A model generated the notes under the pieces. The model was not told the origin of the DNA. It saw only the letters and a list, made by a program, of their open reading frames with translations, and did not search any database. A stretch of DNA of 64,000 nucleotides from Prevotella sp. (GTDB lineage: Bacteria > Bacteroidota > Bacteroidia > Bacteroidales > Bacteroidaceae), in assembly GCA_022771625.1 (NCBI GenBank), contig JALFCW010000057.1:7119-71118 (forward strand), read 5' to 3'. Shown piece after piece: positions 18,982 to 43,339 of the stretch. The position numbers and the translations under genes were made by a program. The stretch's first letter is position 1; every line of letters begins with the position of its first letter.

Positions 18982-19047
18982 CAGAAATTTTAAAATATGT
19001 GATACCTATTCCACATCAAAGAATTATCGGATTTATTTAGGAAGAAT

Positions 19048-19461: not shown

Positions 19462-19514
19462 CGATAATAAAAGTTGTTAATTCAGCACATTCTTGTGTTA
19501 AATGTCGCTAAATC

Positions 19515-19524
19515 GGGGGGGGGG
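19515..19524. repeat. homopolymeric G10 tract immediately upstream of the island promoter
   Basis: Read directly as aatcGGGGGGGGGGttagg. It ends 25 nt before the -7 box at 19550, next to the expected -33 position. Confidence 0.85.
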
Positions 19525-19549
19525 TTAGGTAAATATCATATTTTTTATA

Positions 19550-19557
19550 TATCTTTG
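19550..19557 (+). promoter_or_regulatory. candidate -7 promoter box (TAtcTTTG) for the fimbrial island
   Basis: TATCTTTGCACCC lies 29 nt upstream of the ATG at 19586. The ABC-F promoter box has the same TTTGCACCC extension. Confidence 0.45.
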
Positions 19558-19585
19558 CACCCAAATTATAAGCGATTATTTAACA

Positions 19586-21004
19586 ATGAGAATCAGGGTA
19601 GTAACAATATCGATAATATTTCTATTGTCAACCATAAATTCAATGGTTGCGATGAATATTGAAGACAACGGTGGATATAAACCGCTGCCTGAATACTCTT
19701 TTGTATATATCAGTGAGGATGAAAATGCCACATTGCCTGATGTCTCCGACTCCCTGTTCAATGCCAACGCCCAAGGCATACGGTTTGCGGTCAATCGCAC
19801 TGAGTTGCGTGCCGACGAGCCGTTTATTGCCACTTTCAACAATCATATTCTCCCATTGTTGCGCGACAAGAAACTGGTGCTCAGGCGAATAATGGTGAGA
19901 GGAGCGGCATCACCCGAAGGTCCCTACGCCAACAACTGCCGACTTGGCAAGGAGCGCACCCAGAGGCTTATCGAGTATATTGGCAGTAAGCTCGACAACG
20001 ACTTCGACCCTCGGAATATCCAAAGCAGCAATATCTGTGAGGATTACGACTATCTTATTCATCTGATGACTCTCGCCTCCGACCCTGAGACAAACAACGT
20101 GAAAAAGATATGGCAGGAGGCCAAAGGCAATGAGCAGCAATGCAAACTGCGACTGCAACGGCTGAATGGAGGCAAGACATGGCTACGGCTTAAGCAGAAA
20201 TACTTCCCTTCCCTACGTCAAGCAAGAGTGATGATTTGGTTCGGGCGCAAACCAATGCCCATAACAACAGAACCCATAATACAACAGGACACGATAACAA
20301 CAGATACATTAATAACGGAATACTTAACGGCAACACCGGCAGACACTATTGCATTAACGCCAACAGAGATTCCTATTACTACAACGAAGTCCCCCAGGAT
20401 TCCACTTATAGCAGTGCGCACCAATCTTGTGCACGACTTCTTCTATATGCCCAATTTCGGTTTTGCCCCCGGAGGAAACATCCAACTGGAATATTTCCCC
20501 CGCAAGGGACATCTCACTTATAATATTGGATTCACATTCTCCAACCATCGCCACTGGCAGGACTATAAGTTCTTCCAGATACGCGACCTTCAACTTGAAA
20601 TGCGTCGCTACTTCCGCAGTGGCCATCCCTATCGTGGAGCCTTCCTCGGAGTGTATGCCCACGGATTTGCCTATGGCATCGGATTCAACGCTCACCGCGG
20701 ATGGGAAGGCGAAGGCGGAGGAGCAGGCCTTTCGGGTGGCTACACGATGAAGCTCAACAGCAGTGGTTCGTTGCGTTTGGAACTCACAGCCGCCTTGGGA
20801 TTCCTGCTCACGAAGTACGACCCATATATCTATGGCAATCCCATCACCGGCGAGCTCGACGGCAAGTATTACTATGACTATCTCGGCAATGCCAGCCAGT
20901 TTAAGAAGCGCAACCACCAATTCACATGGTTTGGTCCAACCAACTTGGGCGTGCAGCTCACCTACGACATTATTTACCGTAAAAGGAAAGGAGGCTCGCT
21001 ATGA
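19586..21004 (+). CDS. DUF3575-like outer-membrane protein (OmpA-like segment, Thr/Pro-rich linker, beta-barrel-like C-terminal domain)
   Basis: 472 aa. Signal-like N-terminus IIFLLSTINSMVA, then RIMVRGAASPEGPYANNCRLGKERTQRLIEYI and a linker PITTEPIIQQDTITTDTLITEYLTATPADTIALTPTEIPITTT. The C-terminal region is Gly/aromatic-rich (AVRTNLVHDFFYMPNFGFAPGGNIQLEYF ... NLGVQLTYDIIY). The family name is from memory, not from a search. Confidence 0.65.
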   Translation: MRIRVVTISIIFLLSTINSMVAMNIEDNGGYKPLPEYSFVYISEDENATLPDVSDSLFNANAQGIRFAVNRTELRADEPFIATFNNHILPLLRDKKLVLRRIMVRGAASPEGPYANNCRLGKERTQRLIEYIGSKLDNDFDPRNIQSSNICEDYDYLIHLMTLASDPETNNVKKIWQEAKGNEQQCKLRLQRLNGGKTWLRLKQKYFPSLRQARVMIWFGRKPMPITTEPIIQQDTITTDTLITEYLTATPADTIALTPTEIPITTTKSPRIPLIAVRTNLVHDFFYMPNFGFAPGGNIQLEYFPRKGHLTYNIGFTFSNHRHWQDYKFFQIRDLQLEMRRYFRSGHPYRGAFLGVYAHGFAYGIGFNAHRGWEGEGGGAGLSGGYTMKLNSSGSLRLELTAALGFLLTKYDPYIYGNPITGELDGKYYYDYLGNASQFKKRNHQFTWFGPTNLGVQLTYDIIYRKRKGGSL

Positions 21005-22173
21005 CGAATAAGATAAAAAGACTTGCACAAGCATTTAGCCTCATATCCGCCCTTGGCAGCGGGAGCCTTACTTCGTGTATCGAACCGCCATTGCATCTGC
21101 CGGCAGAGGAAGTGATAGTGGAAGTGCCCACCGTCATCACCGATATGGATGTGGTGTGGAGTGTGGATGTCAACTGGCAAGCCGACTGGCACTTTGGTTG
21201 GGATCTCACCGACATATCTATCTCGGGCGACATCGACTATCCCACACCTTCCAACTATGAGGTACGCAGATATTATATAGGCACAGAACCAGGAGGCGAG
21301 CATAAGAGCGATGGATATGATGCCTTCACAATCTTCGGCACCTCATTCCGCCGAAGCTACAACTTTGGATATTACGACATGCTGATGTGGAGCAATATCG
21401 ACTCACCCGAAGGCACTCAGGTGGTGATTATCGACGACTCAAAGCTCGACGAGGTGACCGCCTCGACCACAGTCACCCGTGGCTTCACCAAGACCGACTC
21501 CAAGGATGCTGTCACCGGTGTTTACAATCAGCCCGAGATATTCTATTCGGCCTACGAGCGAGACATCTATATATCCCGCAATATCGAGGATTACGACTAT
21601 TTCGATGAGGTGGAGAACGTGTGGGTGAAGCATATCGACGCCGAACTCATGCCATTGGTGTATATCTATCTCGTGCAGGTGGTGCTACACAACAACGACG
21701 GGCGCATAGTAGGAGCCACAGGCGATGCCGCACTGACTGCTATGGCGAGCGGCACCAACGTCAACACCGGTCATACCAACAACAGTCCGTGTATGGTGTA
21801 TTTCCCCATGCGTATGAAGCAAGGCATTGACTTCGAGGGAGAGAATGTGGATATCGTGGGCGGAAAGCTCACCACCTTCGGTCTCTGCGACATGGAGGGC
21901 TATCGCTCATATACCAAGGCGGAATACGCAGGCAGTCGCACCGACATCGACAATCATCTGTTGCTGACGCTAAAGTTCAGCAATGGCACTGAGAAGACCT
22001 TCAACTACACCGTCACCGACCAATGCCGAATGCAATGTCATGGCGGACTGATTACAATACATATAGATTGTCGCAACATCGACATTCCCGAAAAGGGAGA
22101 TGAAGGTGAAGGCAACATGTTTGTACCGACAGTTGAGGATTACGAACATATAGATTACGAAATTCCATTTTAA
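21001..22173 (+). CDS. lipoprotein, DUF5119 / FimB-Mfa2-like candidate pilus anchor
   Basis: 390 aa. ATGA start/stop overlap with the upstream gene. Lipobox LGSGSLTSC. NQPEIFYSAY and PLVYIYLVQV resemble the anchor-subunit family. No Arg-Ala processing site in the first 70 residues. Confidence 0.55.
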   Translation: MTNKIKRLAQAFSLISALGSGSLTSCIEPPLHLPAEEVIVEVPTVITDMDVVWSVDVNWQADWHFGWDLTDISISGDIDYPTPSNYEVRRYYIGTEPGGEHKSDGYDAFTIFGTSFRRSYNFGYYDMLMWSNIDSPEGTQVVIIDDSKLDEVTASTTVTRGFTKTDSKDAVTGVYNQPEIFYSAYERDIYISRNIEDYDYFDEVENVWVKHIDAELMPLVYIYLVQVVLHNNDGRIVGATGDAALTAMASGTNVNTGHTNNSPCMVYFPMRMKQGIDFEGENVDIVGGKLTTFGLCDMEGYRSYTKAEYAGSRTDIDNHLLLTLKFSNGTEKTFNYTVTDQCRMQCHGGLITIHIDCRNIDIPEKGDEGEGNMFVPTVEDYEHIDYEIPF

Positions 22174-22194
22174 AATAATAATAAAATTATCAAT

Positions 22195-23514
22195 ATGCGT
22201 AAACTACTATTAATTACGGCATGCTCTGCATTAATTGCATCATGCACCAACGACACAGAACTCAATGGTGGCAACAACTCCGAGAGCAAGCAGAATACCA
22301 TCGGATTTGAAGTGTTACACAGGAACAGTATTACAACTAAAGCTGGTAAATCCAATCTTCAGGAAGCAGGCCACTACAACTTTGGAGTGTTCGCATACAA
22401 GAACATCTCAAGCTCTTCGTCACAACAGGTGATGAACAATTATCTTGTTGGATATAAGGGGAATAACGTGGGATATAACCTTACAGATGCCAATCAGACA
22501 ACATTGTCTTCATCAAATTGGGCATACGAGAAACTTGGCTATTCGGAATATACCTATGATGGCTCTGAGAGATATTATAAGAAAGACGAAACATTCTATA
22601 TGTCAAACAATGCCAACCAATATCTTAAGTATTGGGACAAGTCATCTGAGAGCGTTGACTTCTATGCTTATGCTCCTTATATTAATGGAAATCAGACAGC
22701 TACATTTGCCACAGATACTAAGCAAATGACTATCGGGAATGATGGCATCAAGGATGGTTATGACGACAGGTCAAAGCATGAGTTTATGTATGCAAATACC
22801 ACTGTGGCTAAAGCAAACTATAACAAGGAAGTGCAGCTTGCCTTCAAGCGTATCAGTGCAAAGATGCAGATAAAGTTCTATGAGGATATCACTGGTTATG
22901 AGGTTCAGATACTCGACCTTAAGGAAGATAACACGTCCGGAGTATGTGCAGCTCCTGCCATTGCTCTTACAGGCGAAGGAACAACATATACCTACGGAAC
23001 ACTCTATCATTCAGCCGGTGCCACAATTGACTTCTCCAGTGCTACTCCTTCATTGTCATTAACAGGAAATACTAAGTTTTCTCGCGAATCAACAAATGGC
23101 GAGTGCTTAAGATTTAATGTTCCTACAGCCAATTCTATTGGTACAGATAAGAATAATGCCTCACCATCGTCAACCACATATTATCTCATTCCAATCAATC
23201 AGGACAACACTGGTTTGACATTCCACGTGACATATAAGCTCACGGCAGAGGACACTAAGGAGACCATCACCGTGCGCAATGCCACAGTGCATGTGCCATA
23301 TTCTGCATGCAATTGGACATCAAACAATTCATACACATACATCTTCAAGATTACGAAGAACTCAACGGGTACTACGGAATCTAATCCAACTATCGATCCC
23401 TCCGACCCGAACCCGAGTACAGATAAGGCCCTCTACCCTATTATCTTCGACGAGTGTACTATTGAGAATTGGACAGAGGTTGACTCTGAGCACAACATCA
23501 ACGACAATAATTGA
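22195..23514 (+). CDS. fimbrillin-family lipoprotein, single module
   Basis: 439 aa. Lipobox ALIASC, basic site ITTK(49)AG, family motif LAFKRISAKMQIKFYE and C-terminal IENWTEVDSE. Confidence 0.7.
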   Translation: MRKLLLITACSALIASCTNDTELNGGNNSESKQNTIGFEVLHRNSITTKAGKSNLQEAGHYNFGVFAYKNISSSSSQQVMNNYLVGYKGNNVGYNLTDANQTTLSSSNWAYEKLGYSEYTYDGSERYYKKDETFYMSNNANQYLKYWDKSSESVDFYAYAPYINGNQTATFATDTKQMTIGNDGIKDGYDDRSKHEFMYANTTVAKANYNKEVQLAFKRISAKMQIKFYEDITGYEVQILDLKEDNTSGVCAAPAIALTGEGTTYTYGTLYHSAGATIDFSSATPSLSLTGNTKFSRESTNGECLRFNVPTANSIGTDKNNASPSSTTYYLIPINQDNTGLTFHVTYKLTAEDTKETITVRNATVHVPYSACNWTSNNSYTYIFKITKNSTGTTESNPTIDPSDPNPSTDKALYPIIFDECTIENWTEVDSEHNINDNN

Positions 23515-23534
23515 TACGACCCATTATTTGGAGT

Positions 23535-24806
23535 ATGACTTTGAGCAAGTATAATATCTTCATACTATTGGCAATAATGTCATTGGTTTCTTGTTCCTCA
23601 GATAAGATTATCGAGGAGCAGGAACTGCCGATGTCCACCGACCCCATGCGCTTCGGTGTGCCATCAGTGGGAGATATTGTTCAGACAAAGACAGTCACAA
23701 GGGCAACAGCCGAAGAGTTGAAGTCGGGCTTTCTCGTGAGTGTCTACAAGAACCGGGGAACAGGCTCCCAACAGACGGTTATGAATCAATATGAAGCTAT
23801 CTATAAGCAAGACGATTGGTATCAGAACTCACAATGGGGTACGGTGGGCACAACTGCCGATGGCTTTTATCAGAATCAGTTGGAGAAATACTGGGACTAC
23901 TCAGCCTTCCCCTACGAGTTCTTTGCCATAGCTCCATGTCCAACTACTCAGGATAAAGTGATTGACGGTTTTGGAGTGACAGACACCAATCTGAAGATTA
24001 AGTCAAGCTTCACACATCAAACAGTGGTTGATGGAGCTGTAACCGCCTCACCATTCACAGGCGACAACAAAGAATATCTTGTTTCACAGGTGAAACGCTC
24101 ACGCAATACGTCATCTTCCGACAAGACCGATGATGTAGATATGCTTACAGGTCGCACCATCACCTCGGGCGGCACGCCCTCGGGAGCAGTGAAGTTGCCT
24201 TTTCATCATCTCACGTCCAAGGTGCGCTTTGCCATCTACACCACAGAGCATGTGGATCCTAAGCTCACTCTTCCCATCAAGAATGTCACTGTGAAGGCAA
24301 CATCTGCCGATGGCTTTGCAACAGGATATGAAGGCTATGAGTCAACGTATTCAGCTGGCAAGACGATGTTCGACAATGGACAATTTACTGGTATCACTCG
24401 CAAACAGCCATCTGAAGAAGTAATCCTCTTGAAGTTCTCAGGCCCAACGGCAGACAAGTTCACCGATGCCTATCTTGAGAAGCATGAATGGAAGAGCACT
24501 ACCGACCTCAATGCCTATTACTTTGAGTGTGAAGACGGATTGCTTCAGATGCCTCAGAAGGACGTCAAGCTCACTGTTTCGTTGGAGATTACGGGTTGGG
24601 GCGATGAAGATAAGTTTACTGACGTACCCCTCAAGATAATCAAGTCAGACGGCAATGAGGATGACCAGTTCACATGGCGTCCCAACTGTCTCTACACATA
24701 TTATATAGTCATCAGTCGTCTTTATCCCCACGGCATCACTTTCACAGCAACAGTAGCGCCATGGGAAGACGTCGAAGGCAATCTCTCGACAAATTTAGAA
24801 GAATAA
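23535..24806 (+). CDS. fimbrillin-family lipoprotein, single module
   Basis: The track ORF starts at a TTG at 23511. The ATG at 23535 gives MTLSKYNIFILLAIMSLVSC (lipobox). TVTR(56)AT, LPFHHLTSKVRFAIYT and C-terminal VAPWEDVEGN. Confidence 0.7.
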   Translation: MTLSKYNIFILLAIMSLVSCSSDKIIEEQELPMSTDPMRFGVPSVGDIVQTKTVTRATAEELKSGFLVSVYKNRGTGSQQTVMNQYEAIYKQDDWYQNSQWGTVGTTADGFYQNQLEKYWDYSAFPYEFFAIAPCPTTQDKVIDGFGVTDTNLKIKSSFTHQTVVDGAVTASPFTGDNKEYLVSQVKRSRNTSSSDKTDDVDMLTGRTITSGGTPSGAVKLPFHHLTSKVRFAIYTTEHVDPKLTLPIKNVTVKATSADGFATGYEGYESTYSAGKTMFDNGQFTGITRKQPSEEVILLKFSGPTADKFTDAYLEKHEWKSTTDLNAYYFECEDGLLQMPQKDVKLTVSLEITGWGDEDKFTDVPLKIIKSDGNEDDQFTWRPNCLYTYYIVISRLYPHGITFTATVAPWEDVEGNLSTNLEE

Positions 24807-24846
24807 ATCAAATAAATAACGATTAATCATTAAAAATCACGAAATT

Positions 24847-27213
24847 ATGAAGAAATACATTATCCCATTAAGTATAGTGGCAGCCACATTTGCAGCCTCC
24901 TGCTCGTCGGACGAGAATCTCCCCCAAGAGATTGATAATTCAATGAAGACTCCGATTGAGTTTTCCATGACTGACAATACATCATCTATGAATGTTGGAG
25001 TGTCGGGAGTAACTCGTGCAGGATTTACTTCAAGTACAGATATGGTTGTTAAAATGGTTGCTGAGGAGGTACAGGTTGGTGGAACATCTACCACTCCCAC
25101 TGCCAGAAAATCAACTATTACTAAAGCTACGGCAGAAAATCAATCATCGGTTAATAAAAAAGATGACAATACTTCATATACTTACTCTAATGTCAGTTTC
25201 AACCATGAGAAAAGTGAGCAGAGATATTGGGATGATGCCTACGGAAGAAATACTCAGCTTTCGATATTTGCTGTGGCAGTAAAGGATAAGACTAATTCAG
25301 ATAAATTTAATGATCTCACAGCTTCTTCTTGGACTGATGAGAGTAATATATCATCTGCAATGTCATGGCCTATAACTTGGACAGTCACAAATGAATCTGC
25401 TCAAACTGAATCATCCATAAACGATGAAGACTTAGTTTATAGCAATAACATCCAGTCGAATGGGCAAAGCGGAAAGCGTGAATATGATTTTTCTATTTCT
25501 CAATATAAACCAGTTTATGATTTAAGTAACGGGCGTTTGGAATTTCAGCTGAAAGAATCAGACAAAGCAGATGGACCTGGAAAGTTCGACACAGGAAATC
25601 TTAACTTCACTCATGCCTTATCTCGTATTACTTTGAAGATTAAGTTGGCTTCAGAATTTGGCAATAATGCTTCATTGGATGATAATGAAGTAAAGGTGTT
25701 GAATATGCCATATACAGGAACCCTTGATGTTGTTACAGGTCAATTCACTTCTACCTCAACTAAAGATGCAATTGTTATGGCCCCTCTCTCCAAATCTGGA
25801 TCAGACATAAAAGGTATATATATGGCACAAGTATTGCCTGGATATAAGATTGCCCAAAATTCAAATAATATGCTTCAGTTTAAGGTATATACAGGAGAAA
25901 TGAATAATCCAACAAGCCAAAACATCTATTATGTTACAAATAATAGTGTTTACTCTGCGATTGAAAGCAACTCTGCAATATCTTCTGAAAAAGATGAGAA
26001 TGGTATCACAATGGCACAAGGCAAGCACTATATCCTTACTATCACTGTCGGCAAGACTGCAATTAAGGATATTACAGCTACACTTGTGGATTGGACAAAT
26101 GTTGAGGGTACTCTAGAGCAGAACAATGCTTATCTTACGTTTACTAATGCGTTTAAGAATTCAGATTCAGGAACTACAAGTGCTGCCGATAATTTTGATC
26201 TTTATAGACTTAATGACCCATCAACTGATGTATCTACAGATGGCAATTACAAGTCATATGACTGGAAATCAAAATGGACGGATAAGGCAGAACTGACCAA
26301 AGATAATTCTTCTCAGGAAACAGGAAAGAGCAAATGGACAACAAAATGGTTCTTTGACGACAACAAGTCCTTCTATCATTTTAGAATGGTGGGACAAAAG
26401 GCTGATGGAGAAGACAAGACTCGTACTATTCATGAAGATGCGACAAATGGCGACTATTTCGACATTGAATCAGGAACTACTGCCGGAAACTATACTTGGG
26501 GAGCTCCATTTGTATCTGGGGCTGATTTGAAATATAGCACTACAAGTGGATATGATAATGCGAATGGTGAAAATCACAATATTCACTATGCTATTGGCGC
26601 AACTAATGATAACATACATCTTACATCATTCCACATGCTAAGTCAAATCCGTGTTGTATTAAAGACAGTGGGTGCCTCACAAGGTGGTGTAAATCTACAA
26701 AGTGGCGAACATAAAACCACTGTAAAAATCACAAACGTATTTACCAAGGGTAAGGTGAATATGGGTAATGGACTTGTTACTGCAGGCAAGAACTCTTATG
26801 CTACTCAACCTACAAGAGAAACAGCTGTTACAATGACAGCCCCCCAAACTTTCTTTAAGAACAGTTCAAGTAATTTGGTGACTAATGAGTTTACATACTT
26901 TATTGTTCCTCAGACTTTAGTAGATGACAAGAACACTACAGAAACGACAGATGATGTTTACATCGGCCTTGAAATCCAAACACCCGACAACAATATCTAC
27001 TATGTAGTTAAGAAATTGTCGGAGATAAAGGCATCGAGTGTAGGTGATAACGGCACACAGGTGAAGGATCAGCCAATTAAATGGTGGTATCCCAACCACA
27101 GCTATCTCTATACCATCACATTGAAGAAAACTGGTATTGAGAAAATCACTTGCACGTTGGTTGACTGGACAGAAGTGACAGGAAGCAACCAAGACGTAAC
27201 GATTGAGGACTAA
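24847..27213 (+). CDS. fimbrillin-family lipoprotein, tandem double module
   Basis: 788 aa. Lipobox FAASC and GVTR(57)AG. Module 1 has FTHALSRITLKIKL ... TLVDWTNVEG; module 2 has FHMLSQIRVVLKT ... TLVDWTEVTG. Confidence 0.7.
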   Translation: MKKYIIPLSIVAATFAASCSSDENLPQEIDNSMKTPIEFSMTDNTSSMNVGVSGVTRAGFTSSTDMVVKMVAEEVQVGGTSTTPTARKSTITKATAENQSSVNKKDDNTSYTYSNVSFNHEKSEQRYWDDAYGRNTQLSIFAVAVKDKTNSDKFNDLTASSWTDESNISSAMSWPITWTVTNESAQTESSINDEDLVYSNNIQSNGQSGKREYDFSISQYKPVYDLSNGRLEFQLKESDKADGPGKFDTGNLNFTHALSRITLKIKLASEFGNNASLDDNEVKVLNMPYTGTLDVVTGQFTSTSTKDAIVMAPLSKSGSDIKGIYMAQVLPGYKIAQNSNNMLQFKVYTGEMNNPTSQNIYYVTNNSVYSAIESNSAISSEKDENGITMAQGKHYILTITVGKTAIKDITATLVDWTNVEGTLEQNNAYLTFTNAFKNSDSGTTSAADNFDLYRLNDPSTDVSTDGNYKSYDWKSKWTDKAELTKDNSSQETGKSKWTTKWFFDDNKSFYHFRMVGQKADGEDKTRTIHEDATNGDYFDIESGTTAGNYTWGAPFVSGADLKYSTTSGYDNANGENHNIHYAIGATNDNIHLTSFHMLSQIRVVLKTVGASQGGVNLQSGEHKTTVKITNVFTKGKVNMGNGLVTAGKNSYATQPTRETAVTMTAPQTFFKNSSSNLVTNEFTYFIVPQTLVDDKNTTETTDDVYIGLEIQTPDNNIYYVVKKLSEIKASSVGDNGTQVKDQPIKWWYPNHSYLYTITLKKTGIEKITCTLVDWTEVTGSNQDVTIED

Positions 27214-27224
27214 AAAAACGAGTA

Positions 27225-31348: not shown

Positions 31349-31388
31349 TGAATGACGGGATGGTTAGTGATGATTGATAATTGATTAA

Positions 31389-35600: not shown

Positions 35601-35662
35601 GCGACGAGAAGATTATTGGCAAGAAGAGTTCGGTCAATCCCGACGAACCAGTATTTGACTGA
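32618..35662 (+). CDS. fimbrillin-like N-terminal module fused to two GLUG-like repeat domains (candidate tip adhesin)
   Basis: 1014 aa with an ATGA overlap upstream. Lipobox ATLSGC, TTTR(56)AT, LQHQRALITVILKAGEG and VQPWTDV. Then GDPIIIDNREQLEAFL, FIGGIAAES and CGGIVGNANGYVMNN. A second unit follows (VIDCQDELGKLVN, FTLDGNNKAITLDG, ASGLVAQAA, YFGGIVGGT). Confidence 0.65.
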   Translation: MKKILTYITFALCIIATLSGCSEKLSEWWNNDAPDMTGEEIVFTSQLPAVVKTTTRATSVDNELLNGYKPVSEKYEFSISMYKQDGENSTLIGNAATYTPIDNNTNGDLKSTAPLHWQDNVNKYGFEATAGTQSLEAEQDTKEKWLKQDLLKGFGYEPLIETTGEGESSTSNKIDKIDALNYRTNKEWYNANKTWKDENGISSSDEYKKIPLFLQHQRALITVILKAGEGVDRKDVLASTAQQKIATKIYSYDDSQQEEIQKKLEITPLQGTATVNYDKIGNLPAETNVEVARYDAIVMPHNYFTNAEDEKICAINVANQKFSFYASNDSRYGKKEELSESGKKEFEDAYNLQAGDNLVITATLSRDSRKILITAYVQPWTDVITSYVCDDFGSTGDPIIIDNREQLEAFLKNKEKNASGYVAVLNTNLTLDDWTLSKDLNAILNLGNHTITTDNTLLNNITASGSLINGNIKVKNTQSDVKTIICENNEGLIDHINITNDDDDNPAIVSRAAIAIINYGYISSCSSAIKVMGKATAEGEEIFIGGIAAESKANSVGMLSVINNCTVTGKVDAKDGTTVKCGGIVGNANGYVMNNTYEYGVTLNQETDSQARFKNIVHTKANNDNIQLIATGNQWPTQTTNTPVGGDAINNTRPNHELFYKVIDCQDELGKLVNPESNYNDAKYSYRIADNFTVLSDTWELGKKSDETNNTNAKNVLFTLDGNNKAITLDGTKKIYYNDKKSEADDDSKANITAPMLFANITGTVKNLTLLCKQSLYGIPEYADGEDGKNMSSDICAPLAYAVVGGTISNIKVHAVPYTDSEGKTVYPKVVAALPSGLVTWAYKGATIENCTSDIDVEMKLASDYADKDKTLFASGLVAQAADATITQCKYAPRDYFKFSSTYKTTKIYFGGIVGGTVKKQIDNYYHIPKLTISDCASWYSHEDGAYTIGSIIGRAYYISVTGNENVDGVNKTACQGNWWPSGITGVGNISAVGGDEKIIGKKSSVNPDEPVFD

Positions 35663-35691
35663 CTAATATTTAAAAAAAGCAAGAACGATAT

Positions 35692-37476
35692 ATGAAGAAA
35701 CGGATATTATATATGGCAATGATGGCTGCGGCTTTTGCCTCATGTCAGGACAACACCACCGAAACAGAATACCCGCATGATGCCTCACTTGACATCAAGG
35801 TGGGGAGTATCGACTGTGGTTCTGCCGATGCCGTGGTGGTGGAGAATATTACCAAGTCGGCCACTACTCGTGCTTCACAAAAAGCAGAGGAAGTTGAATG
35901 GCTGAAAGATCCTTTGCTTAAAGGTATTGACGTGAGCTATTATCTAAGAAGTGACGAAAACAAAAACACGTCAACGGCTGTGCTAAAGCTGTTGCCGGAA
36001 ATTAATCAGGTTGCCGGAGATTCTACAAAATATTCTTTCAATTACAAAGATGAGAATGGACAAGAGACCCAAAAGCCTGCACAATGGAAAGGCAATGCTG
36101 GACATGTGTTTCATGGATTCTATATACCCGAAGGCATAAGCAACGGAGAAATAGGAAATCAGAGTGAGTCTGAGATTTCGAATGAACCAAATGCAGAGTC
36201 ATATTACGACAAACTATGGCGCTACCTCAGTATGCCGCCCAACCATGAGATTATGGCTACCGTGGGATATGTGCGTCTGCCGTTCCGCCACCGTCTGTCG
36301 CGCGTGTTGGCATACGTGCTTATCGACCCTGATCTCAAAACCTCAATTAAGGACAACATCATATCTTTTGAGAATGTGAAAGTGCTTGAGAAGGTTGAGG
36401 GCACAACTCCAAAATGGACAACAGCACGCAAAGTTGTGCCACATTCGATGGGCACATCCGGAAGTGTAAACAAGAAGTTGGAGCAGACAGATGAAAACTT
36501 CCTCGTATTCCGCAATACAACATCCAATACATTCGTTTATCCCACGGATGACGCATGGGCAAATGTTAAGGCGGCTTACGATAATAATAAGGAGAACAGT
36601 GGATATGAGGAGATTAATTATGGCAAAGTGCCTTGTTTCGACATTATCGTGCGCCCCACTTATACGTCATCGGCATTGGTGATGTATGATGAGGATATGA
36701 GCAACGGAATGAATGCCGCGAAATATGCTGATGAGACAAACAGCATCGACTTTGTGGTGGATCTCGTAAATGGTCTTTCATATAACAAAACGTTTAAGTT
36801 TGACCTCGACGCCAACTATCAAACTGCGGTCTTCCTGCGCATTAGTCGCGAGAAGGTGGATTACCAGACAATGGGTTCGGAACTGTGGCAGCAATACGAA
36901 GCCACCGACGGATATTATGGTGTGGATAACGACCTTAACCATCGCCTCTCGCTCGCCGGAGGCAGTTGGCAACGCGCTTATCGCAACTCTTCATTTAAAC
37001 CTGGAATAACGGATGGTGACTTCTATAAGGAGCAATATGTGGCTGGTACGAAATGGATTGAGATGTTCAAAAATGCAGTTATGCCCTCAGATACAATAAA
37101 GGCAAATATCCCAAGTGATAATCACTGGGGCGACTACTTTGTGCTCGACAAAGACATCACCATTAATGTGTCAGAATTTCCTGCCGATTTCATCTTCACA
37201 GGCCATCTCGACGGACGTGGATATACTATCACTTTAACAGGAGGAACTGATGACACTCGTTATCTCTTTGACGGACTGAATGGCACATACGATGCCGAAG
37301 CTGGACAAGCAAACTGCCACAAAGAAGGCGGAGTGATTGTTCCGGAAAAGGGTTATCGGGCAGAAGTAATGAACTTAAAGATAAAGGGAGGGAAGCTCTT
37401 TTCGTCTGCGGCTGAGGCAGACAAGGAGAACAAGATAACGGGAATAGTATATAATTGCAAGGAGGAGACGGAATGA
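35692..37476 (+). CDS. fimbrillin-like lipoprotein with a short GLUG-preamble-like C-terminus
   Basis: 594 aa. Lipobox AAFASC, ATTR(60)AS and LPFRHRLSRVLAYVLID. The C-terminus reads DYFVLDKDITINVSEFPADFIFTGHLDGRGYTITLTGG. Confidence 0.6.
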   Translation: MKKRILYMAMMAAAFASCQDNTTETEYPHDASLDIKVGSIDCGSADAVVVENITKSATTRASQKAEEVEWLKDPLLKGIDVSYYLRSDENKNTSTAVLKLLPEINQVAGDSTKYSFNYKDENGQETQKPAQWKGNAGHVFHGFYIPEGISNGEIGNQSESEISNEPNAESYYDKLWRYLSMPPNHEIMATVGYVRLPFRHRLSRVLAYVLIDPDLKTSIKDNIISFENVKVLEKVEGTTPKWTTARKVVPHSMGTSGSVNKKLEQTDENFLVFRNTTSNTFVYPTDDAWANVKAAYDNNKENSGYEEINYGKVPCFDIIVRPTYTSSALVMYDEDMSNGMNAAKYADETNSIDFVVDLVNGLSYNKTFKFDLDANYQTAVFLRISREKVDYQTMGSELWQQYEATDGYYGVDNDLNHRLSLAGGSWQRAYRNSSFKPGITDGDFYKEQYVAGTKWIEMFKNAVMPSDTIKANIPSDNHWGDYFVLDKDITINVSEFPADFIFTGHLDGRGYTITLTGGTDDTRYLFDGLNGTYDAEAGQANCHKEGGVIVPEKGYRAEVMNLKIKGGKLFSSAAEADKENKITGIVYNCKEETE

Positions 37477-40139
37477 AAAGAACACTATATAGTATATTGG
37501 TAATATTGGCAATGCTCTCATCATGCAGTGACGATGAATATGGCAAACTCACTGCCGAACAGGAGAGACTCATCGGTAAGGCGGTGAACTTCAACACCAG
37601 TATTGCCGAACCATTTGCCACACGTGCGTCTTACAATACTGACGGCGGTTTTAATGAAAACGACCAAATCACCATCTTTCGGCAGTATTCCAATGATAAT
37701 GGTGCAACCTTCGACCCAGAGAGCGAGGGCTACAGAGTGTATAGCTATCAGGCAAGAAACGTTACTGGAACTAACATCCGTATCAACACGTTGTGGAAGG
37801 TGAAACCAGGAAAACAAGGCTATGAGCCAGCTCATGGATCTATTCCGGCACGAGGAACATTCACACAAACGGAAGCCGACTCATTGACATGGGACGATGG
37901 TCGCACTGTGAGATTCCGTGCATGGGGAATGAGCAATCTCTCGGGATGTCTTGACAATGGTTCGTGGGACAGTTTCTATCCCGACTTCTATATGTCGTCG
38001 TGGGTGACTGCCTCTGGTCCTTCGAGCGATATTCCCCTCACTATGCGCCATCTCGGATGCCGTATAGCCATTACTCCACTTGCAGGCAACCAACTGCAAA
38101 AGATTGAGATATGCACTGAATATGAGGATTATATGCGCGAGGATAATGCCGACTCTGATGATAATGATGCAACAGACAAATGCTCGGAAGAAGAAGCCCG
38201 TAAGCGTGCTGATGAAGTGAAGAAAGTTTTCGAGAAGATGTGTATGCCAGGAGGTATCGACTTTGAAACTGGCTTGATGGCTATGAGTGCTTCATACAAA
38301 AATGTTCATGATAATATCAAGACCATCGAGCAAAAGACAGACCAAGAGCAAATGATAAAGTTCAATACTCTATCTGCATCTGATATTGCCACAAAAGCCG
38401 TCCGTCCTGTATTCAATAACAACAATGGTCATCGTTATCTTATCACTATTCCCCACGACATGAGTACGGAAGAGGCAGGAAAAAGATTGACATTGCCGCC
38501 ATATACCCGATTCCGTATCTATCTACGTGATGTGAATGATGGTGACAAGGGCACATCGGGATATGAGGGAGAATATCATATCTTTGCCTTGGACGACATA
38601 GCAAAGGTTGACGAAAACAGAAACGTAATTAAAGACGCAGAAGGAAAGCCAGTGAAGATGTTCCCCGATGGTCTTCCACTTATCGCAGGCTACAGTTATA
38701 GGTTTAAGGTGGGCTACCATTACAATTCTCTTAAGATTCTTGCCGACAATAACTTCTCTTGGGAAGTACAAAACCTCGATAATGCAAATCTTACAGACGA
38801 GAAGCAGGTTGAACCCACGAGCGATCACCCTTATAAATGGTGGAAGGAAGCCATCGACAAGTCAATATCCGAAGTACTGTCATCATCTGACAAGAGTTTT
38901 AATCCTGTATTCGAGATTAATACAGTGGCGGAGTTCTTTGAGTTTATCAAACTTGTCAACGGTACTGCATATAATTCCACTCCTGAATTCAAGATAGAAC
39001 GTGGAGAAAGATATACAGATGAAACTGCGGAAGGAAATATCAAGTATCGCTGGAAATGGTATAAGGTGTTGGAAGATGGGTCAAGAGGTGATGAAATATC
39101 CAAGGAAGATGCAGAACAGGCAGGATATATCTTCTATCACTCCTACTATCCAGCCGAGGGCGACAACAGTGCTTATTATATCGAGAACTATCTCGATGCG
39201 CCATACAGTTTCTACAGTAATCTCGTCAACCGAAAATTCAAGGTTGTGATAAATAAAGATCTCGACTTCCAAGACTTGAAGATGGCTACAATCGGCACTG
39301 AATCGACTCCCTTCCTCGGTGTCCTCGACGGGCAAAACCATGTGTTGAGTAATATATATATGTCATCGGGTTATCTCTTCGACTATGCCGGTTATTCTTC
39401 ATCAAACATGCATTCGTCTGCCTCGGGAGCGGTGATATCAAATCTCGTGTTGCAGTCGGAACAACCGCTTTGTGTGGTTAATCATGGCAAGGACGTGAAG
39501 ATTCTCGGTATTGCCCTTGAGACTCCAAGCGACAAGGCGGCATTCGGTGAGGAACTTATTGGCACAAGTTATCTCGTGGGTTGTATCAACGAGGGTGACG
39601 CCACCGTGGGGCTTGTGGGCAAGGCAAGCGACTTATATATGTATGGCTGTCTGCAGACGGCTGCCGGTATCAATGGTGGTGCATTGCTCGGCGAATACAC
39701 TGCGGGAGCGTCACAGTTCTTCGCTCCACAAGTGGGCAAGGTGATATGGGGGCGATTCATGTGCAACTACTTCGACATCGACCGCTCGCCCAATGCCGTG
39801 GCTGTGGGAGGGCATGGCGATTACACCTATCCCCTGCAGCAATATATCCGTGGCACAAAGACCTATATCCTGCGTGCCGTTGAGGACAATCTCATCACAA
39901 GTGAGGCCGACCTCGAAGCGCTCAAAGGCAAGGAGGCTCTGACTAAAATCTACGGTCTGGCTCCATGGAAGGCGATGAACTATGCCATTTATCGCTACAA
40001 CAACAGTTCCACTGGTGCGCTGTATCCTTGCACTGTGCATTATAAGATTAACGATACATACAACCACCGCTACCCATTGCTCCATAGTGGAGGGCCCACA
40101 GTGGAAAGCGGATGGAACGTGCTCAATTTGTTGAACTAA
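37473..40139 (+). CDS. fimbrillin-like N-terminal module fused to a GLUG-like C-terminal domain
   Basis: The track ORF starts at 37455. The ATG at 37473 (an ATGA overlap with the upstream stop) gives MKRTLYSILVILAMLSSC. FATR(51)AS and LTMRHLGCRIAITPL. The C-terminal region has INTVAEFFEFIKLVNG, FLGVLDGQNHVLSNIYM, VGLVGKAS and GGALLGEY. Confidence 0.6.
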   Translation: MKRTLYSILVILAMLSSCSDDEYGKLTAEQERLIGKAVNFNTSIAEPFATRASYNTDGGFNENDQITIFRQYSNDNGATFDPESEGYRVYSYQARNVTGTNIRINTLWKVKPGKQGYEPAHGSIPARGTFTQTEADSLTWDDGRTVRFRAWGMSNLSGCLDNGSWDSFYPDFYMSSWVTASGPSSDIPLTMRHLGCRIAITPLAGNQLQKIEICTEYEDYMREDNADSDDNDATDKCSEEEARKRADEVKKVFEKMCMPGGIDFETGLMAMSASYKNVHDNIKTIEQKTDQEQMIKFNTLSASDIATKAVRPVFNNNNGHRYLITIPHDMSTEEAGKRLTLPPYTRFRIYLRDVNDGDKGTSGYEGEYHIFALDDIAKVDENRNVIKDAEGKPVKMFPDGLPLIAGYSYRFKVGYHYNSLKILADNNFSWEVQNLDNANLTDEKQVEPTSDHPYKWWKEAIDKSISEVLSSSDKSFNPVFEINTVAEFFEFIKLVNGTAYNSTPEFKIERGERYTDETAEGNIKYRWKWYKVLEDGSRGDEISKEDAEQAGYIFYHSYYPAEGDNSAYYIENYLDAPYSFYSNLVNRKFKVVINKDLDFQDLKMATIGTESTPFLGVLDGQNHVLSNIYMSSGYLFDYAGYSSSNMHSSASGAVISNLVLQSEQPLCVVNHGKDVKILGIALETPSDKAAFGEELIGTSYLVGCINEGDATVGLVGKASDLYMYGCLQTAAGINGGALLGEYTAGASQFFAPQVGKVIWGRFMCNYFDIDRSPNAVAVGGHGDYTYPLQQYIRGTKTYILRAVEDNLITSEADLEALKGKEALTKIYGLAPWKAMNYAIYRYNNSSTGALYPCTVHYKINDTYNHRYPLLHSGGPTVESGWNVLNLLN

Positions 40140-40156
40140 ATAGTATTCGGAAAGAA

Positions 40157-41203
40157 ATGAAACATAATATATTGCTTTACATATCATTGGCGACAACGAT
40201 GCTGTGGAGTTGCTCTACTGACAACATTCAGGAGAGCGACAACAATCTGCATGGCGTAAGTCTATCGTCGTCAATCGTCTCGTTTGAAGGCGAACAGCAA
40301 ACTAAGGTTAACCTTGCCGGCAACGGATTTGAAGATGGTGACATGATTAGGATAAAGGTGATTTGTCCGTACGTCACTTCACAGGAAGCCGGAGAATCGA
40401 CTTACGGCGGCACTTATGACGGCTTCTGGGTACAGAAATGGAGAGGTTCGGGATGGACAAGCATACCCGACAGCGATGGTTTTGACTTCAATGGCGACTA
40501 TCAAAGGTCGGGCGGTTCGTCAATCATCGGTCAGGTGTTGTCGCAACAGACGCCCTACGTCTTCACCGCATCCACATGGACTGAGGAAAAGGTATTTAAA
40601 ATAGGCGGCAAGATGGTGGTGCAGTATGCCAACGTATTCCATGCCGACCAATCCAATCCCGCCAACTATAAGGCAAGCGATGTACTATGGGCGCAAAACT
40701 TCATGCAGACAGCCACTGACATGATACATTTCGACTTCCATCATGTGATGGCGGCTCTCAAGATAACTGTTGCTGATAATGTCACACTTTCCGATAAGGC
40801 TGTTCTCACAATAGAAAATATGCCCGACATCGACCAAGCCGAGATTATCGTGGGGGATATGTTTGCCGCCAAGAGTAAGGTGAATTCGATGTGTGGATAT
40901 GAGGAGAAACATAAATGTAGTGCAGAAGAGAATGGTAAGGCACTTGGCATTGGAGTGAATTCAAATATGGAATCTTCCACTACGAAATTTGAACAGATAT
41001 CCCAAACTGCCACCTACAAGGCAATGCGTAAGGAGAACACAAATAATGTGTATCAATTGATTGTTCCTCCATGCACGATCAAGAATCCCGTAGTATGGAT
41101 TCGTGATGGCGAAAACCGATGGAAGGTGGAACTTGGCAAGAAGATATTCGAAGCTGGCAAAATGTATAACATCACTCTTAATCTGCAATCCCAAACTGAA
41201 TAA
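40157..41203 (+). CDS. fimbrillin-family lipoprotein, small single module
   Basis: The track ORF starts at 40112. The ATG at 40157 gives MKHNILLYISLATTMLWSC (lipobox). QQTK(50)VN and FDFHHVMAALKITVAD. There is no C-terminal DW-type motif. Confidence 0.6.
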   Translation: MKHNILLYISLATTMLWSCSTDNIQESDNNLHGVSLSSSIVSFEGEQQTKVNLAGNGFEDGDMIRIKVICPYVTSQEAGESTYGGTYDGFWVQKWRGSGWTSIPDSDGFDFNGDYQRSGGSSIIGQVLSQQTPYVFTASTWTEEKVFKIGGKMVVQYANVFHADQSNPANYKASDVLWAQNFMQTATDMIHFDFHHVMAALKITVADNVTLSDKAVLTIENMPDIDQAEIIVGDMFAAKSKVNSMCGYEEKHKCSAEENGKALGIGVNSNMESSTTKFEQISQTATYKAMRKENTNNVYQLIVPPCTIKNPVVWIRDGENRWKVELGKKIFEAGKMYNITLNLQSQTE

Positions 41204-43245
41204 TGGCAATGAAAAATCTATCCATAAATATCCTCGCTTTTGCAATCTCCATGGCAATATGCGGAGCGTGCAGCAATGACTCTGACGACAATGTGAGCAC
41301 GCAGAATGCCAAAGTGCTCACTGGTATTAATGCGGACATATACGGCACTGATGCTGCCATCACACGCGCCTCAAACACCACCGAAAAAGAACCTATATAC
41401 GTAGGCAGGCTGGCGTTTGTGGGTGGCGACAAGATAGTTATGACCTCATTTCAGCGAACAGACAACCCAATAAGCGACTTTACCTACAATGACATTAGAT
41501 GGAAAAAGGGGGGAAATGAAGGTGAAACCGAAGGCGGATGGAATCGCGATAATGATGATTCGGAAAACAATGAAAAGAAGATTTATTGGAGCGATGCCGA
41601 AAACTATCACACCGTTGTCGGATATAGCATTCCACAGAAAATGCCTACAGAAAACTGGAGCAAGACAGCTGAAGAAAGTGTAAACAACTATGAAGGCCAA
41701 CTCACATTATCTGACAACAAAGTGAATTACAGCTCAAAGGATGATTTGACAAAGGATGATGTAGTGCTCACATATAGTAAGGAAATTAAGTCGGACGCAA
41801 CGGGTATTGCAACCATATATTTCCGTCATGCCCTTAGCAGTCTCACTGTGGATGTGAATATCCAAGGCTTTGCTGCCACTCCCGGTATGGGTGCCGAAGA
41901 GAAGGACAATGCATCGAGGGTGAAGGACCTCATTATACTTAAGCAACCATATAAATATATGTGGAAACAAACAAGCGATAGTGTTGAAACAATAGAAAAC
42001 GACGAATCAAAAGCTGATATAACGGCATTTACAAACAATTCAGATGGCGAAGGCAGCGGCAACGGAAGGCGTTTCTTTTTTCATGCGCTTGCCGTTCCGG
42101 GATTGCGTGACGCGATAACAATCAAATTTGATGTCACCTACCCTGACCCTCTAAAGCCAACAACTACAATAACAAACACTTATAAAGCCACTGCCAAAAA
42201 TGTTTTTTTCCTGGCTGGCAAGCGCACGACGATAAAGATTAACCTCAATCACGAGAACGAGAAAATCACCGTGGGAGCAATATATGATGACTGGGTGTTT
42301 AAGGACACACCCGACCAAGGTAATCTTGATAAAAATTCAACATATCTTGCTTCTACAGAAATGAGTAATATTAGATTGCATAATGAAGAGGGACTCACCA
42401 TTGATGATGCCACATGGCTATATATGGACGGCGAGAATATAAAAGATATATATGGAAATGACGGTACAAAGGATAAACCTTATACTATCTCCACCGCCAA
42501 CCAACTCTTGGCTTTCGCCTATGAGGTGAACAAAGGCGTAATGTCATTTGATGGCAAATATGTTCGCCTTGACGCATCCATACACATGCAGCCGACAACA
42601 TCTTCCACCAATGTGGAATGGATAGGTATCGGTTCAGAAGATCATCCCTTTGATGGCAACTTCGATGGAGGATTGCGCGATATATCTTATCTCAAGGGTA
42701 AGTCATTGTTTGGAAATATCAGTACAAATGCTATTGTTGAAGGCTTGTCGCTCAGCCGCATGATTGGCACTACGGATGGGGGCAGCATCGCCTGTGTCAA
42801 CAATGGTACTGTCTATGGATGTATGGTGAAAGGGGATGTCAGTGGCACTACGAATGCTGGAGGTATATGTGCCACCAACAACGGCACTATCATGGCATGC
42901 GCACATATCGGTGATGTAAAAGCCACAAATGAAACTGATACAAAAGCAGGAGGAATGGCTGGTGAGAACAATGAAGATGGCACTATCCTTGCCTCTTATT
43001 TCGCAGGCAACCTGACAGCCACCACAACATCGCCACAATGCTATTTCAATAGTGACCTATATACTCCAACTTCTGAAAAGAAATGGGCTAAACCGACAAT
43101 TGACATGATTATGCAGGCATTTGTAGATGATTTAAACTTTGAAATCACTGACAGCAGGACCAAGCAAAACCTTCGCAAATATCAGTTCATATATCAGCCC
43201 TCAGAATATCCGTCGCTGGTATCGCAACAAAAAAACGTGGAGTAA
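41203..43245 (+). CDS. fimbrillin-like N-terminal module fused to a GLUG-like C-terminal domain (candidate tip adhesin)
   Basis: 680 aa with a TAATG overlap upstream. Lipobox MAICGAC, AITR(55)AS, IYFRHALSSLTVDVNIQG and YDDWVF. Then KDKPYTISTANQLLAFAYEVNKG, PFDGNFDGGLRDISYL, AGGICATNNGTIMAC and AGGMAGENNEDGTILASY. Confidence 0.65.
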   Translation: MAMKNLSINILAFAISMAICGACSNDSDDNVSTQNAKVLTGINADIYGTDAAITRASNTTEKEPIYVGRLAFVGGDKIVMTSFQRTDNPISDFTYNDIRWKKGGNEGETEGGWNRDNDDSENNEKKIYWSDAENYHTVVGYSIPQKMPTENWSKTAEESVNNYEGQLTLSDNKVNYSSKDDLTKDDVVLTYSKEIKSDATGIATIYFRHALSSLTVDVNIQGFAATPGMGAEEKDNASRVKDLIILKQPYKYMWKQTSDSVETIENDESKADITAFTNNSDGEGSGNGRRFFFHALAVPGLRDAITIKFDVTYPDPLKPTTTITNTYKATAKNVFFLAGKRTTIKINLNHENEKITVGAIYDDWVFKDTPDQGNLDKNSTYLASTEMSNIRLHNEEGLTIDDATWLYMDGENIKDIYGNDGTKDKPYTISTANQLLAFAYEVNKGVMSFDGKYVRLDASIHMQPTTSSTNVEWIGIGSEDHPFDGNFDGGLRDISYLKGKSLFGNISTNAIVEGLSLSRMIGTTDGGSIACVNNGTVYGCMVKGDVSGTTNAGGICATNNGTIMACAHIGDVKATNETDTKAGGMAGENNEDGTILASYFAGNLTATTTSPQCYFNSDLYTPTSEKKWAKPTIDMIMQAFVDDLNFEITDSRTKQNLRKYQFIYQPSEYPSLVSQQKNVE

Positions 43246-43339
43246 TTCCAGTAACCTGAGTGACCATCATAGATAATCGCCATACGGGACAAAATATAAA
43301 ATAAGGTGGAAAATGTTTGGCTATATCACAAATTATTTG

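Follow-up and report, generated by a model that had tools for sequence, protein, structure and literature searches.

A conserved 13-gene locus of the type V pilus type on an accessory island of a gut Prevotella

Type V pili are understood almost wholly from two operons of Porphyromonas gingivalis, fim and mfa, which comprise five genes each (PMC8512630). Type V pilins are made as lipoproteins, are cleaved at an arginine in the beta1-beta2 loop (Arg46 in FimA, Arg49 in Mfa1) and polymerise via C-terminal donor strands; tip and adaptor pilins have no donor strand, and the anchor has no cleavage site (PMC13655056). According to reviews, the mechanism of their lipoprotein sorting is still unknown (PMC13655056). 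In Bacteroides fragilis 638R, 93 pilin genes are distributed over 22 operons, i.e. about four per operon, and the same study, which deals with diversity-generating retroelements (DGRs), found pilin-like proteins that do not become part of pili (bioRxiv 10.1101/2024.11.15.621889). Here we describe a locus of 13 genes, g01 to g13, in a stretch of 64 kb of Prevotella sp. DNA (contig JALFCW010000057.1; the whole stretch is called the window below). We propose, at a probability of roughly 0.6, that the locus is one operon, transcribed from about position 19550, for a complex fibre of the type V pilus type with differentiated, non-redundant subunits.

The locus has much in common with fim and mfa of P. 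gingivalis: the precursors are lipoproteins with an arginine in the beta1-beta2 loop (Arg49 in Mfa1, Arg46 in FimA, T-R-A here), the fold is the double beta-sandwich (models of g13 and g11 match Mfa2, Mfa3 and Mfa4), accessory proteins follow the structural ones, with a large non-pilin domain in one of them (vWA in Mfa5, beta-helices here), and the major subunit is polymorphic between strains. It differs by having 13 genes instead of five, three of them for tandem-duplicated pilins, by four pilin-beta-helix fusions where mfa has the single Mfa5-like protein, and by its leading genes for a DUF3575 barrel and a DUF5119-like lipoprotein, both missing from fim and mfa; a FimB/Mfa2 anchor is not recognisable. 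Type V operons of Bacteroides, which encode anchor, stalk and tip, resemble the locus in that pilin-homolog operons are scattered over Bacteroidales genomes and vary between strains, those of Bacteroides often being horizontally transferred, and in that their tips consist of a pilin fold (4EPS, 4QB7 and 5NF4, also among our Foldseek matches) followed by a C-terminal binding domain. In the Bacteroides DGR operons, C-type-lectin tips are diversified by the retroelement, often on integrative and conjugative elements (ICEs) or prophages, whereas here there is neither a DGR nor an ICE, diversity arises as alleles of g05-g07 are replaced, and the tip-type proteins carry beta-helix-like domains. The original prediction for this DNA, made by a model from the letters and open reading frames alone, had named a type V pilus locus far beyond the usual size of about five genes. 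Both statements hold: a DUF3575 protein and a lipoprotein are followed by eleven lipoproteins, at least ten of which are relatives of FimA/Mfa, and 13 genes compare with five in fim and mfa and an average of about four in strain 638R.

Gene content and pilin hallmarks

The 13 genes are listed here with their positions in the window; values for Mfa_like_1 are those of the Pfam match.

g01, 19586..21004, + strand: DUF3575 outer-membrane protein with a signal peptide (Pfam match)
g02, 21001..22173, + strand: lipoprotein (LTSC; invariant S-C-I-E-P-P-L) without a T-R-A site
g03, 22195..23514, + strand: single-module fimbrillin-like lipoprotein with a T-K-A site (Mfa_like_1 9.1e-14)
g04, 23535..24806, + strand: single-module fimbrillin-like lipoprotein (Mfa_like_1 1.7e-9), 98% conserved among conspecific strains
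g05, 24847..27213, + strand: tandem-module fimbrillin-like lipoprotein, hypervariable (Mfa_like_1 1.6e-16, two stretches)
g06, 27225..29417, + strand: tandem-module fimbrillin-like lipoprotein (Mfa_like_1 1.2e-30), hypervariable; its C-terminal tail is conserved
g07, 29408..31348, + strand: tandem-module fimbrillin-like lipoprotein, the most polymorphic gene (Mfa_like_1 8.6e-41)
g08, 31389..32621, + strand: single-module fimbrillin-like lipoprotein, GTG start (Mfa_like_1 6.9e-9), 96-97% identical within the species
g09, 32618..35662, + strand: pilin-like N-terminal region (about residues 1-390) and a C-terminal beta-helix-like region of about 620 amino acids
g10, 35692..37476, + strand: lipoprotein with a T-T-R-A site, an F-R-H-R-L-S-R motif and a short C-terminal module in common with g13
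g11, 37473..40139, + strand: pilin fold (about residues 35-425, with a helical insertion) and a C-terminal beta-rich domain of about 430 amino acids; among the best-conserved subunits
g12, 40112..41203, + strand: short single-module fimbrillin-like lipoprotein with a T-K-V site, without the terminal W-tail (Mfa_like_1 2.4e-11)
g13, 41203..43245, + strand: pilin fold (about residues 35-361) and a C-terminal beta-helix

The pilin hallmarks recur throughout g03-g13. All eleven proteins carry a lipobox cysteine at residue 17-34 (by regular expression; LWSC of g12 and CGAC of g13 by eye) and a T-(R/K)-(A/V/T) motif 28-38 amino acids past it. For g07, g08, g11, g12 and g13, 30-31 of 31 orthologs retain the Arg/Lys of this putative cleavage motif, and in the structural models of g13 and g11 the T-(R/K)-A lies in or beside a loop of low confidence (predicted local distance difference test, pLDDT) between the strand at 39-44 and the next strand. 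The common F-x-H-x-L-S-K-type motif was found in nine of the eleven proteins by regular expression and, as variants, in g04 and g09 by eye, so that the lipobox signal peptide and the shared motif, both noticed in the original prediction, apply to all eleven. At their C-termini, g03-g08 have a W motif and then a further 13-26 amino acids as a tail, whereas g09, g10, g11 and g13 run on into another domain. In g06 and g07, comparison with distant orthologs shows the C-terminal tail to be better conserved than the remainder of the protein.

The FimA/Mfa fold superfamily accounts for at least ten of the eleven downstream proteins. Seven of them (g03-g08 and g12) exceed the Pfam cut-off for Mfa_like_1, g13 and g11 were assigned by Foldseek, and g09 by profile comparison with hhalign. 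The count of eleven fimbrillin paralogs given at the outset is therefore right for these ten; membership is not demonstrated for g10, for which it is the motifs that point to a pilin. The hhalign network connects g05-g09, g12, g13 and g11, while the profiles of g03 and g04 consist of only three sequences each, which makes their weak links uninformative. An all-against-all BLASTP comparison relates only g05, g06 and g07 to one another (22-26%) and, through their N-termini, g03 to g04. The predicted internal duplication of three proteins is real: N- and C-terminal halves align with hhalign probabilities of 97.3% in g05, 97.4% in g06 and 99.2% in g07. An NCBIfam scan of eight products gave no meaningful match.

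For the four proteins with C-terminal extensions (g09, g10, g11, g13), sequence searches were of little help: none matches Pfam Mfa_like_1, and neither single-sequence nor profile searches returned a credible PDB relative. AlphaFold2 models gave clear results for two of them. The g13 model (pLDDT 81.4) matches 4qb7 in Foldseek (1.4e-10) as well as P. gingivalis Mfa2, Mfa3 and Mfa4, and the N-terminal half of the g11 model (pLDDT 84.9) matches 4h40 (6.8e-8) and Mfa3 (5nf4; 4.7e-4), in line with the likeness to Mfa proteins that had been anticipated. Structurally, the N-terminal halves of g13 and g11 are closest to Bacteroides 'putative cell adhesion' or 'fimbrial' proteins solved by the Joint Center for Structural Genomics (4qb7 BVU_2522, 4h40 BF2867, 4k4k, 3ufi and 3sy6), which differ in being single-module proteins of 256-336 residues with 9-14% identity and without the C-terminal module. 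Although g13 itself stays below the Mfa_like_1 cut-off, 9 of the 61 members of its family exceed it. The g09 profile aligns to g07 and g08 with an hhalign probability of 96% and to g13 with 97.4%; against the g13 family the probability is 94.8% over 512 columns. In g10, residues 463-530 align to g13 (92%) and the first ~115 residues to g11; among 1.84 billion proteins this gene is represented by only 93 clusters at 50% identity. Within the pilin fold of the g11 model there is an acidic-rich helical insertion of about 90 residues (about 218-310, DNADSDDNDATDK...), whose DNADS... stretch is also present in the consensus of the g11 family alignment.

The four large non-pilin C-terminal domains of the original prediction are thus confirmed, and those of g09, g11 and g13 are homologous to one another (hhalign 97.4%), with a short version in g10 (about 90%). 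Their predicted Glug nature is not upheld: g09 reaches 12 bits against the Pfam GLUG cut-off of 20.5 (E 0.3), and g10, g11 and g13 have no match, even though G-rich repeats such as GGIVGNANG are GLUG-like. The beta-helix is backed by a weak fold match only, since the sole significant non-pilin Foldseek match of g13 is the IgA1 protease of Streptococcus pneumoniae (6xja_P, E 9.7e-4). The C-terminal half of g13 weakly resembles, besides 6xja, a Bacteroides 'putative IgA1 protease' (3n6z), which is also the best PDB match of the g13-family profile (E 0.2). Compared with viral structures, the g11 model had no Foldseek match at E <= 0.001, only weak ones of the beta-helix or tailspike type. No protease family of Pfam or NCBIfam was matched in g09-g13.

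The two leading genes are of a different kind. In g01, an N-terminal region of about 270 amino acids, which has no match, and a Thr/Pro-rich linker precede DUF3575 at residues 275-460 (57.4 bits against a cut-off of 21.1 bits, E 1.5e-15); the domain also exceeds the cut-off in the orthologs of L093 and L127 (L-numbers designate related loci or contigs compared with the window). The first protein had indeed been taken for a DUF3575 barrel-type outer-membrane protein. Its exact sequence is absent from protein records. The second protein had been described as an anchor of the DUF5119/Mfa2 type. It is a lipoprotein as predicted, and it matches DUF5119 below threshold (19.3 bits against 27, E 1e-3); since all seven distant orthologs examined (about 50% identical) reach the same region of the profile, likewise below threshold (18.1-24.5 bits), g02 can be seen as a remote DUF5119 relative at most, not as a Pfam member. 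In the literature, 'DUF5119' turned up only in an unrelated T-cell study. The Mfa2 label was dropped, given the sub-threshold DUF5119 match, the lack of similarity to the pilins and the lack of a PDB relative; sequence and profile searches with g01 and g02 found no credible one. We retain g02 as a candidate basal or anchor component.

In the open reading frame (ORF) listing of the window, g01-g13 are 13 co-directional ORFs on the + strand (19586-43245). Neighbouring genes overlap by 4 nt (ATGA) at 21001, 32618 and 37473, by 1 nt (TAATG) at 41203 and by 10 nt at 29408, and the remaining spacers measure 21, 40, 11, 40 and 29 nt. Since each gene has hundreds of homologs, all of them can be regarded as real. 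The true start of g04 is likely ATG 23535 (423 amino acids), as in the gene calls of L006 and L008, its longest ORF opening at TTG 23511; that of g12 is likely 40157 (348 amino acids), as in L001 and L006. The -7 promoter box of the Bacteroidota is TAnnTTTG, a consensus to which TATCTTTG at 19550-19557 (+ strand), 29 nt 5' of the g01 ATG, conforms. Between 18900 and 43400, the only other intergenic copies precede yjbQ (18974) and the ABC-F gene (43340), the other eight being intragenic; the promoter-like context of the operon recurs ahead of ABC-F (repeat family D11). These junctions and the single intergenic -7 box support the notion of one operon, whose genes would be transcribed as a unit. 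The ORFs with their overlaps and the promoter at 19550 had been noted in the original prediction, with which the check agrees throughout.

A G10 homopolymer (19515-19524, + strand) lies 25 nt upstream of the -7 box and is the only one in the window, against an expectation of 0.02. The tract is G11 in L008 and L009, with otherwise identical flanks, and interrupted in L006 (GGAGAGAGAA); it could be a slipped-strand on/off switch of the operon or assembly noise at a poly-G run. Terminator-like sites found with an intrinsic-terminator scan are close to the shuffled expectation and not enriched. A sigma-70 scan was also near its shuffled expectation except for 31300-43500 (45 promoter-like sites versus 27.7 +/- 5.9), the sigma-70 model being inappropriate for Bacteroidota. 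A tRNA scan found no tRNA at the locus, and Rfam gave no match.

Conservation across Bacteroidales and variation within the species

With the g11 profile at least 66 loci were retrieved from GTDB species representatives, and with the g05 profile at least 44 from metagenomes, of which 16 were long enough to analyse. Both collection scans were seeded with patterns, so the counts are lower bounds, and orthologs were assigned by best tblastn match. The hosts of the g11-scan loci are Prevotellaceae, Bacteroidaceae, Muribaculaceae, Candidatus Cryptobacteroides and others, with rumen, horse gut and pig gut as the main sources; rumen metagenomes also contribute to the colinear loci described below. 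Four metagenome-assembled genome (MAG) records (L012, L014, L018 and L066) carry the operon at 55-59% identity under the non-Bacteroidales titles '[Ruminococcus] lactaris', 'Eubacterium sp. CAG:180', 'Senegalimassilia sp.' and 'Subdoligranulum sp.'; these titles or bins are almost certainly mislabelled or contaminated. Cultured carriers are Xylanibacter brevis ATCC 19188, X. ruminicola KHT3, D31d and Ga6B6, and Prevotella sp. MA2016.

The order g01-g13 is colinear and on one strand in 81 of 82 loci, at 30-60% identity to the window (tblastn), and each operon position has its own one-to-one ortholog. The sole exception to colinearity, L016 (a Muribaculaceae MAG), has a second DUF3575 gene, 23% identical to g01, directly after the g13 ortholog, which suggests tandem DUF3575-led operons. 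When loci truncated by contig ends are left aside, g08-g13 are all kept in 51 of 51 GTDB loci, and the 16 long metagenome loci without exception begin with g01-g02, followed by (g03)-g04-g05. Two other strains, L006 and L008, have all 13 genes in this order, and the distal part is seen in other genera, as g05-g13 for Xylanibacter brevis and as g06-g13 for Mediterranea. Variation in gene number is confined to stalk-like genes: g07 is missing in L107 and L117, g03 and g06 in L118 and L127; a set of two or three tandem pilins seems to be enough. With a mean identity to the window of 51% (g01) and 49% (g02), the two leading genes are the best conserved across lineages, followed by g12 (44%) and g11 (43%), the rest being at 35-40%. 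As the region upstream of g01 differs between loci, the conserved unit starts at g01; yjbQ, which precedes g01 in the window, is not adjacent to the operon in distant species.

The one-to-one orthology seen for 81 of 82 loci, together with paralogs that are barely detectable by BLASTP, points to an ancient fixed architecture rather than a local expansion or a shuffled repertoire; recent paralog expansion was ruled out by the all-against-all BLASTP and by synteny. The original prediction had spoken of a hyper-expanded repertoire of interchangeable subunits, a claim that does not survive the ancient divergence of the paralogs and the colinear loci with their own ortholog at each position. It had also considered that the arrangement might prove to be a widely annotated, already characterised operon. 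It is indeed widespread, but not characterised, its products being named only 'fimbrillin family protein' or 'hypothetical protein' in the databases. No description of the 13-gene arrangement was found in the literature, a search whose scope does not include Xu et al. (2016, Cell 165:690).

Within the species the subunits differ strongly in their conservation, as seen from identities to the strains L006 and L008:

g04: identity to L006/L008 98/98%
g08: identity to L006/L008 97/96%
g10: identity to L006/L008 94/93%
g11: identity to L006/L008 94/97%
g05: identity to L006/L008 75/68%
g06: identity to L006/L008 92/56%
g07: identity to L006/L008 68/72%

At the DNA level, window and L008 are 98.5% identical from yjbQ to the start of g05, largely unalignable in g05-g06 and 92.9% identical thereafter, a pattern that reads as a recombination mosaic. 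In a protein database clustered at 90% identity, the g07 proteins fall into more than 115 clusters (66-100% identity) and those of g13 into about 29 (80-100%), while g11 is represented by one near-identical cluster (P0241, 411 members), the next ones being at 71% and 59%. In g07, the N-terminal residues 21-80, which include the putative anchor strand and cleavage site, are conserved, as are the junction between the modules and the final 26 residues (621-646), whereas internal patches are variable. Conserved termini combined with variable patches are the pattern that would be expected of an exposed, polymerising subunit.

The accessory island and its flanks

The operon belongs to a segment that is present in some strains of this Prevotella species only:

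Island, 18907..43296: 24,390-bp segment with yjbQ and the 13-gene operon, absent from conspecific strains
UPF0047/YjbQ gene, 19048..19461, + strand: Pfam 7e-39, co-inserted with the operon, with a TAnnTTTG box of its own at 18974

The breakpoints, 18906/18907 and 43296/43297, were determined by blastn of the empty-site contigs L078, L080, L084, L085 and L087 against the window. At the empty site, about 102 bp between truA and the ABC-F gene take the place of the 24,390 bp. An identical ABC-F protein occurs on about 1000 contigs, and in all ten distinct contexts listed truA is directly upstream, without yjbQ or operon. Several related samples are pig-gut metagenomes. The comparison of the truA to ABC-F interval suggested in the original prediction has hence established that the island is strain-variable. 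In L008 and L009 yjbQ also lies directly upstream of g01. Near-identical copies of the operon are found elsewhere, next to ClpS/ClpA in L001 and EamA/PMI/GH92 in L003. No GTDB species representative has a g11 that is more than 59% identical, though the search patterns match the window's own sequence, which is consistent with accessory status.

The operon is flanked to the left by truA (minus strand) and UPF0047/YjbQ and to the right by ABC-F, GrpE and DnaJ; these housekeeping neighbours, and the lack of an integrase, are as originally described. Between the breakpoints we found only yjbQ and the 13 genes, and no integrase or transposase, tRNA or flanking direct repeat. An 18-nt imperfect inverted match (I22, 18883-18900 versus 43217-43234) was considered as an att-like repeat and treated as chance, being one of 61 such pairs. 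G+C content is 0.39-0.46 within the island versus about 0.44-0.51 outside. The island was probably acquired or lost by recombination. Past the g13 stop, the + strand of 43246-43381 has no terminator-like hairpin before the promoter box of ABC-F (43340), and read-through from the island into ABC-F/grpE/dnaJ is conceivable.

On the other side of truA, about 17560-18124 of the window marks a second variable spot in the species. It corresponds to the regions upstream of truA in L080, L084, L085, L086 and L087. At this place the window has NadE-GH53-EamA, while some strains carry defence-type genes (DarT, AbiEii, WYL with AAA_15, and an ADP-ribosylglycohydrolase). The 560-bp gap beside truA in the window holds short inverted matches to those defence-gene strains.

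A proposed complex fibre and its alternatives

In the fibre that we propose, the products of g03-g13 would be exported as lipoproteins, and an Arg/Lys-specific protease would remove the N-terminal anchor strand. The subunits with a free conserved C-terminal tail, g03-g08, would then polymerise by strand exchange, the tandem double-length g05-g07 forming an exposed, antigenically variable shaft. In g09, g10, g11 and g13 a beta-helix module stands in place of the free C-terminus, and together with g12 they may form a fixed distal composite tip or adhesin set. The DUF3575 barrel (g01) and the uncleaved DUF5119-like g02 would be the basal platform or anchor in the outer membrane. This assignment of roles follows from the patterns described above. 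A basal role of g01 and g02 is suggested by the highest cross-lineage identity and by the lack of a cleavage motif in g02; a shaft role of g05-g07 by their hypervariability within the species, where their neighbours are 93-98% identical, and by the conserved tails of g06 and g07; and differentiated roles in general by the 81 colinear loci, by g08-g13 in every complete locus and by paralogs that are nearly undetectable with BLASTP.

Several points weigh against this proposal. The filament, the cleavage, the transcript, all of the assembly, the order of the subunits and the roles of g01 and g02 are deduced from sequence. Conservation of the tails is suggestive of donor strands, which they may be. 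Four tip-type proteins in one filament would be without precedent, and several types of filament are possible. The locus has no gene for an Arg-specific protease. None of its proteins matches Pfam Mfa2, nor is an anchor of the FimB/Mfa2 family recognisable, and g02 has no profile similarity to the eleven downstream pilins (hhalign probability <=2.4%). For DUF3575, the literature offers gene lists only and no function on record. Even with a family profile of 30 sequences, g10 has no Pfam fimbrillin or PDB match. The predicted template modelling score (pTM) of the g11 and g13 models is only 0.54-0.57, so that domain orientations and packing in them are unreliable.

Some of these points can be read in favour of other explanations. 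Four tip-type proteins, where each filament needs one distal end, would suit a single platform that serves an interchangeable repertoire of stalk, adaptor and tip subunits, giving pili with alternative subunits from an array built by paralog expansion. Eleven pilin-superfamily genes behind one promoter, the exchange of g05-g07 alleles between strains and lineages without g07, or without g03 and g06, which show some flexibility in stalk genes, agree with such a repertoire as well. A redundant repertoire should, however, show lineage-specific gain, loss and copy-number change. Instead, the paralogs are ancient, with BLASTP similarity limited to g05-g07, every position has an ortholog of its own, no complete locus has lost any of g08-g13, and any expansion did not occur in this genome, all of which makes interchangeable subunits unlikely. 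The missing Mfa2/FimB anchor and protease gene, and the fact that the two non-pilin genes (g01 and g02) are the most conserved, would rather be expected of a surface complex that does not polymerise, in which fimbrillin-fold lipoproteins gather around the DUF3575 barrel and g02, perhaps as an array for adhesion or substrate capture that is located on the outer membrane or on vesicles. Some pilin-like proteins are known to stay out of pili (bioRxiv 10.1101/2024.11.15.621889), and the shaft pilins characterised so far do not typically have tandem modules or large C-terminal domains. We nevertheless consider such a complex quite unlikely, as the conserved T-(R/K)-A sits exactly at the position of maturation cleavage, the g06 and g07 tails are conserved, and conserved termini with a variable surface are hard to explain without assembly by strand exchange.

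A further question is whether the beta-helix modules of g09, g10, g11 and g13 are enzymes, glycan-degrading or proteolytic, that are displayed on the fibre, e.g. for plant fibre or mucus. Polysaccharide lyases and tailspikes often contain parallel beta-helices, weak and non-significant Foldseek matches of this kind were obtained, and the only significant non-pilin match is an IgA1 protease chain, accompanied by the weak sequence match to 3n6z; moreover, the operon occurs mainly in Bacteroidales of rumen, horse and pig gut. Against this stand the absence of any Pfam, NCBIfam or PDB sequence match to catalytic families and the weakness of the IgA1 protease match (E 9.7e-4); an enzymatic function appears improbable.

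Coming back to the fibre with differentiated subunits, it may be asked how general it is. The protein families are known ones, but their conserved architecture stands out by its unusual size, the tandem pilins, the four beta-helix fusions, the DUF3575/DUF5119-like leading genes and the lack of a recognisable Mfa2/FimB anchor. That the operon stands for a distinct conserved class of 'complex' type V pili, heteropolymeric, with a double-length tandem shaft, a fixed multi-protein beta-helix tip and a DUF3575/DUF5119-like platform for export and assembly, is a speculative thought that we would not yet bet on; if true, it would identify the lipoprotein-sorting step of this class, which is still unknown in the reviews (PMC13655056). 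The two leading proteins bear on how type V pilins reach the cell surface and assemble there.

Set against the five-gene operons from which type V pili are known, the 13-gene version, intact across at least three Bacteroidales families from rumen, horse, pig and human gut, points to a far more elaborate fibre than any studied. The species-level hypervariability of the tandem pilins points to immune or phage pressure on the shaft, and cultured carriers make experiments feasible. Being an accessory island in a prevalent gut Prevotella, the locus is a candidate strain-level determinant of colonisation, and its four conserved pilin-beta-helix fusions may be the adhesins that determine it.

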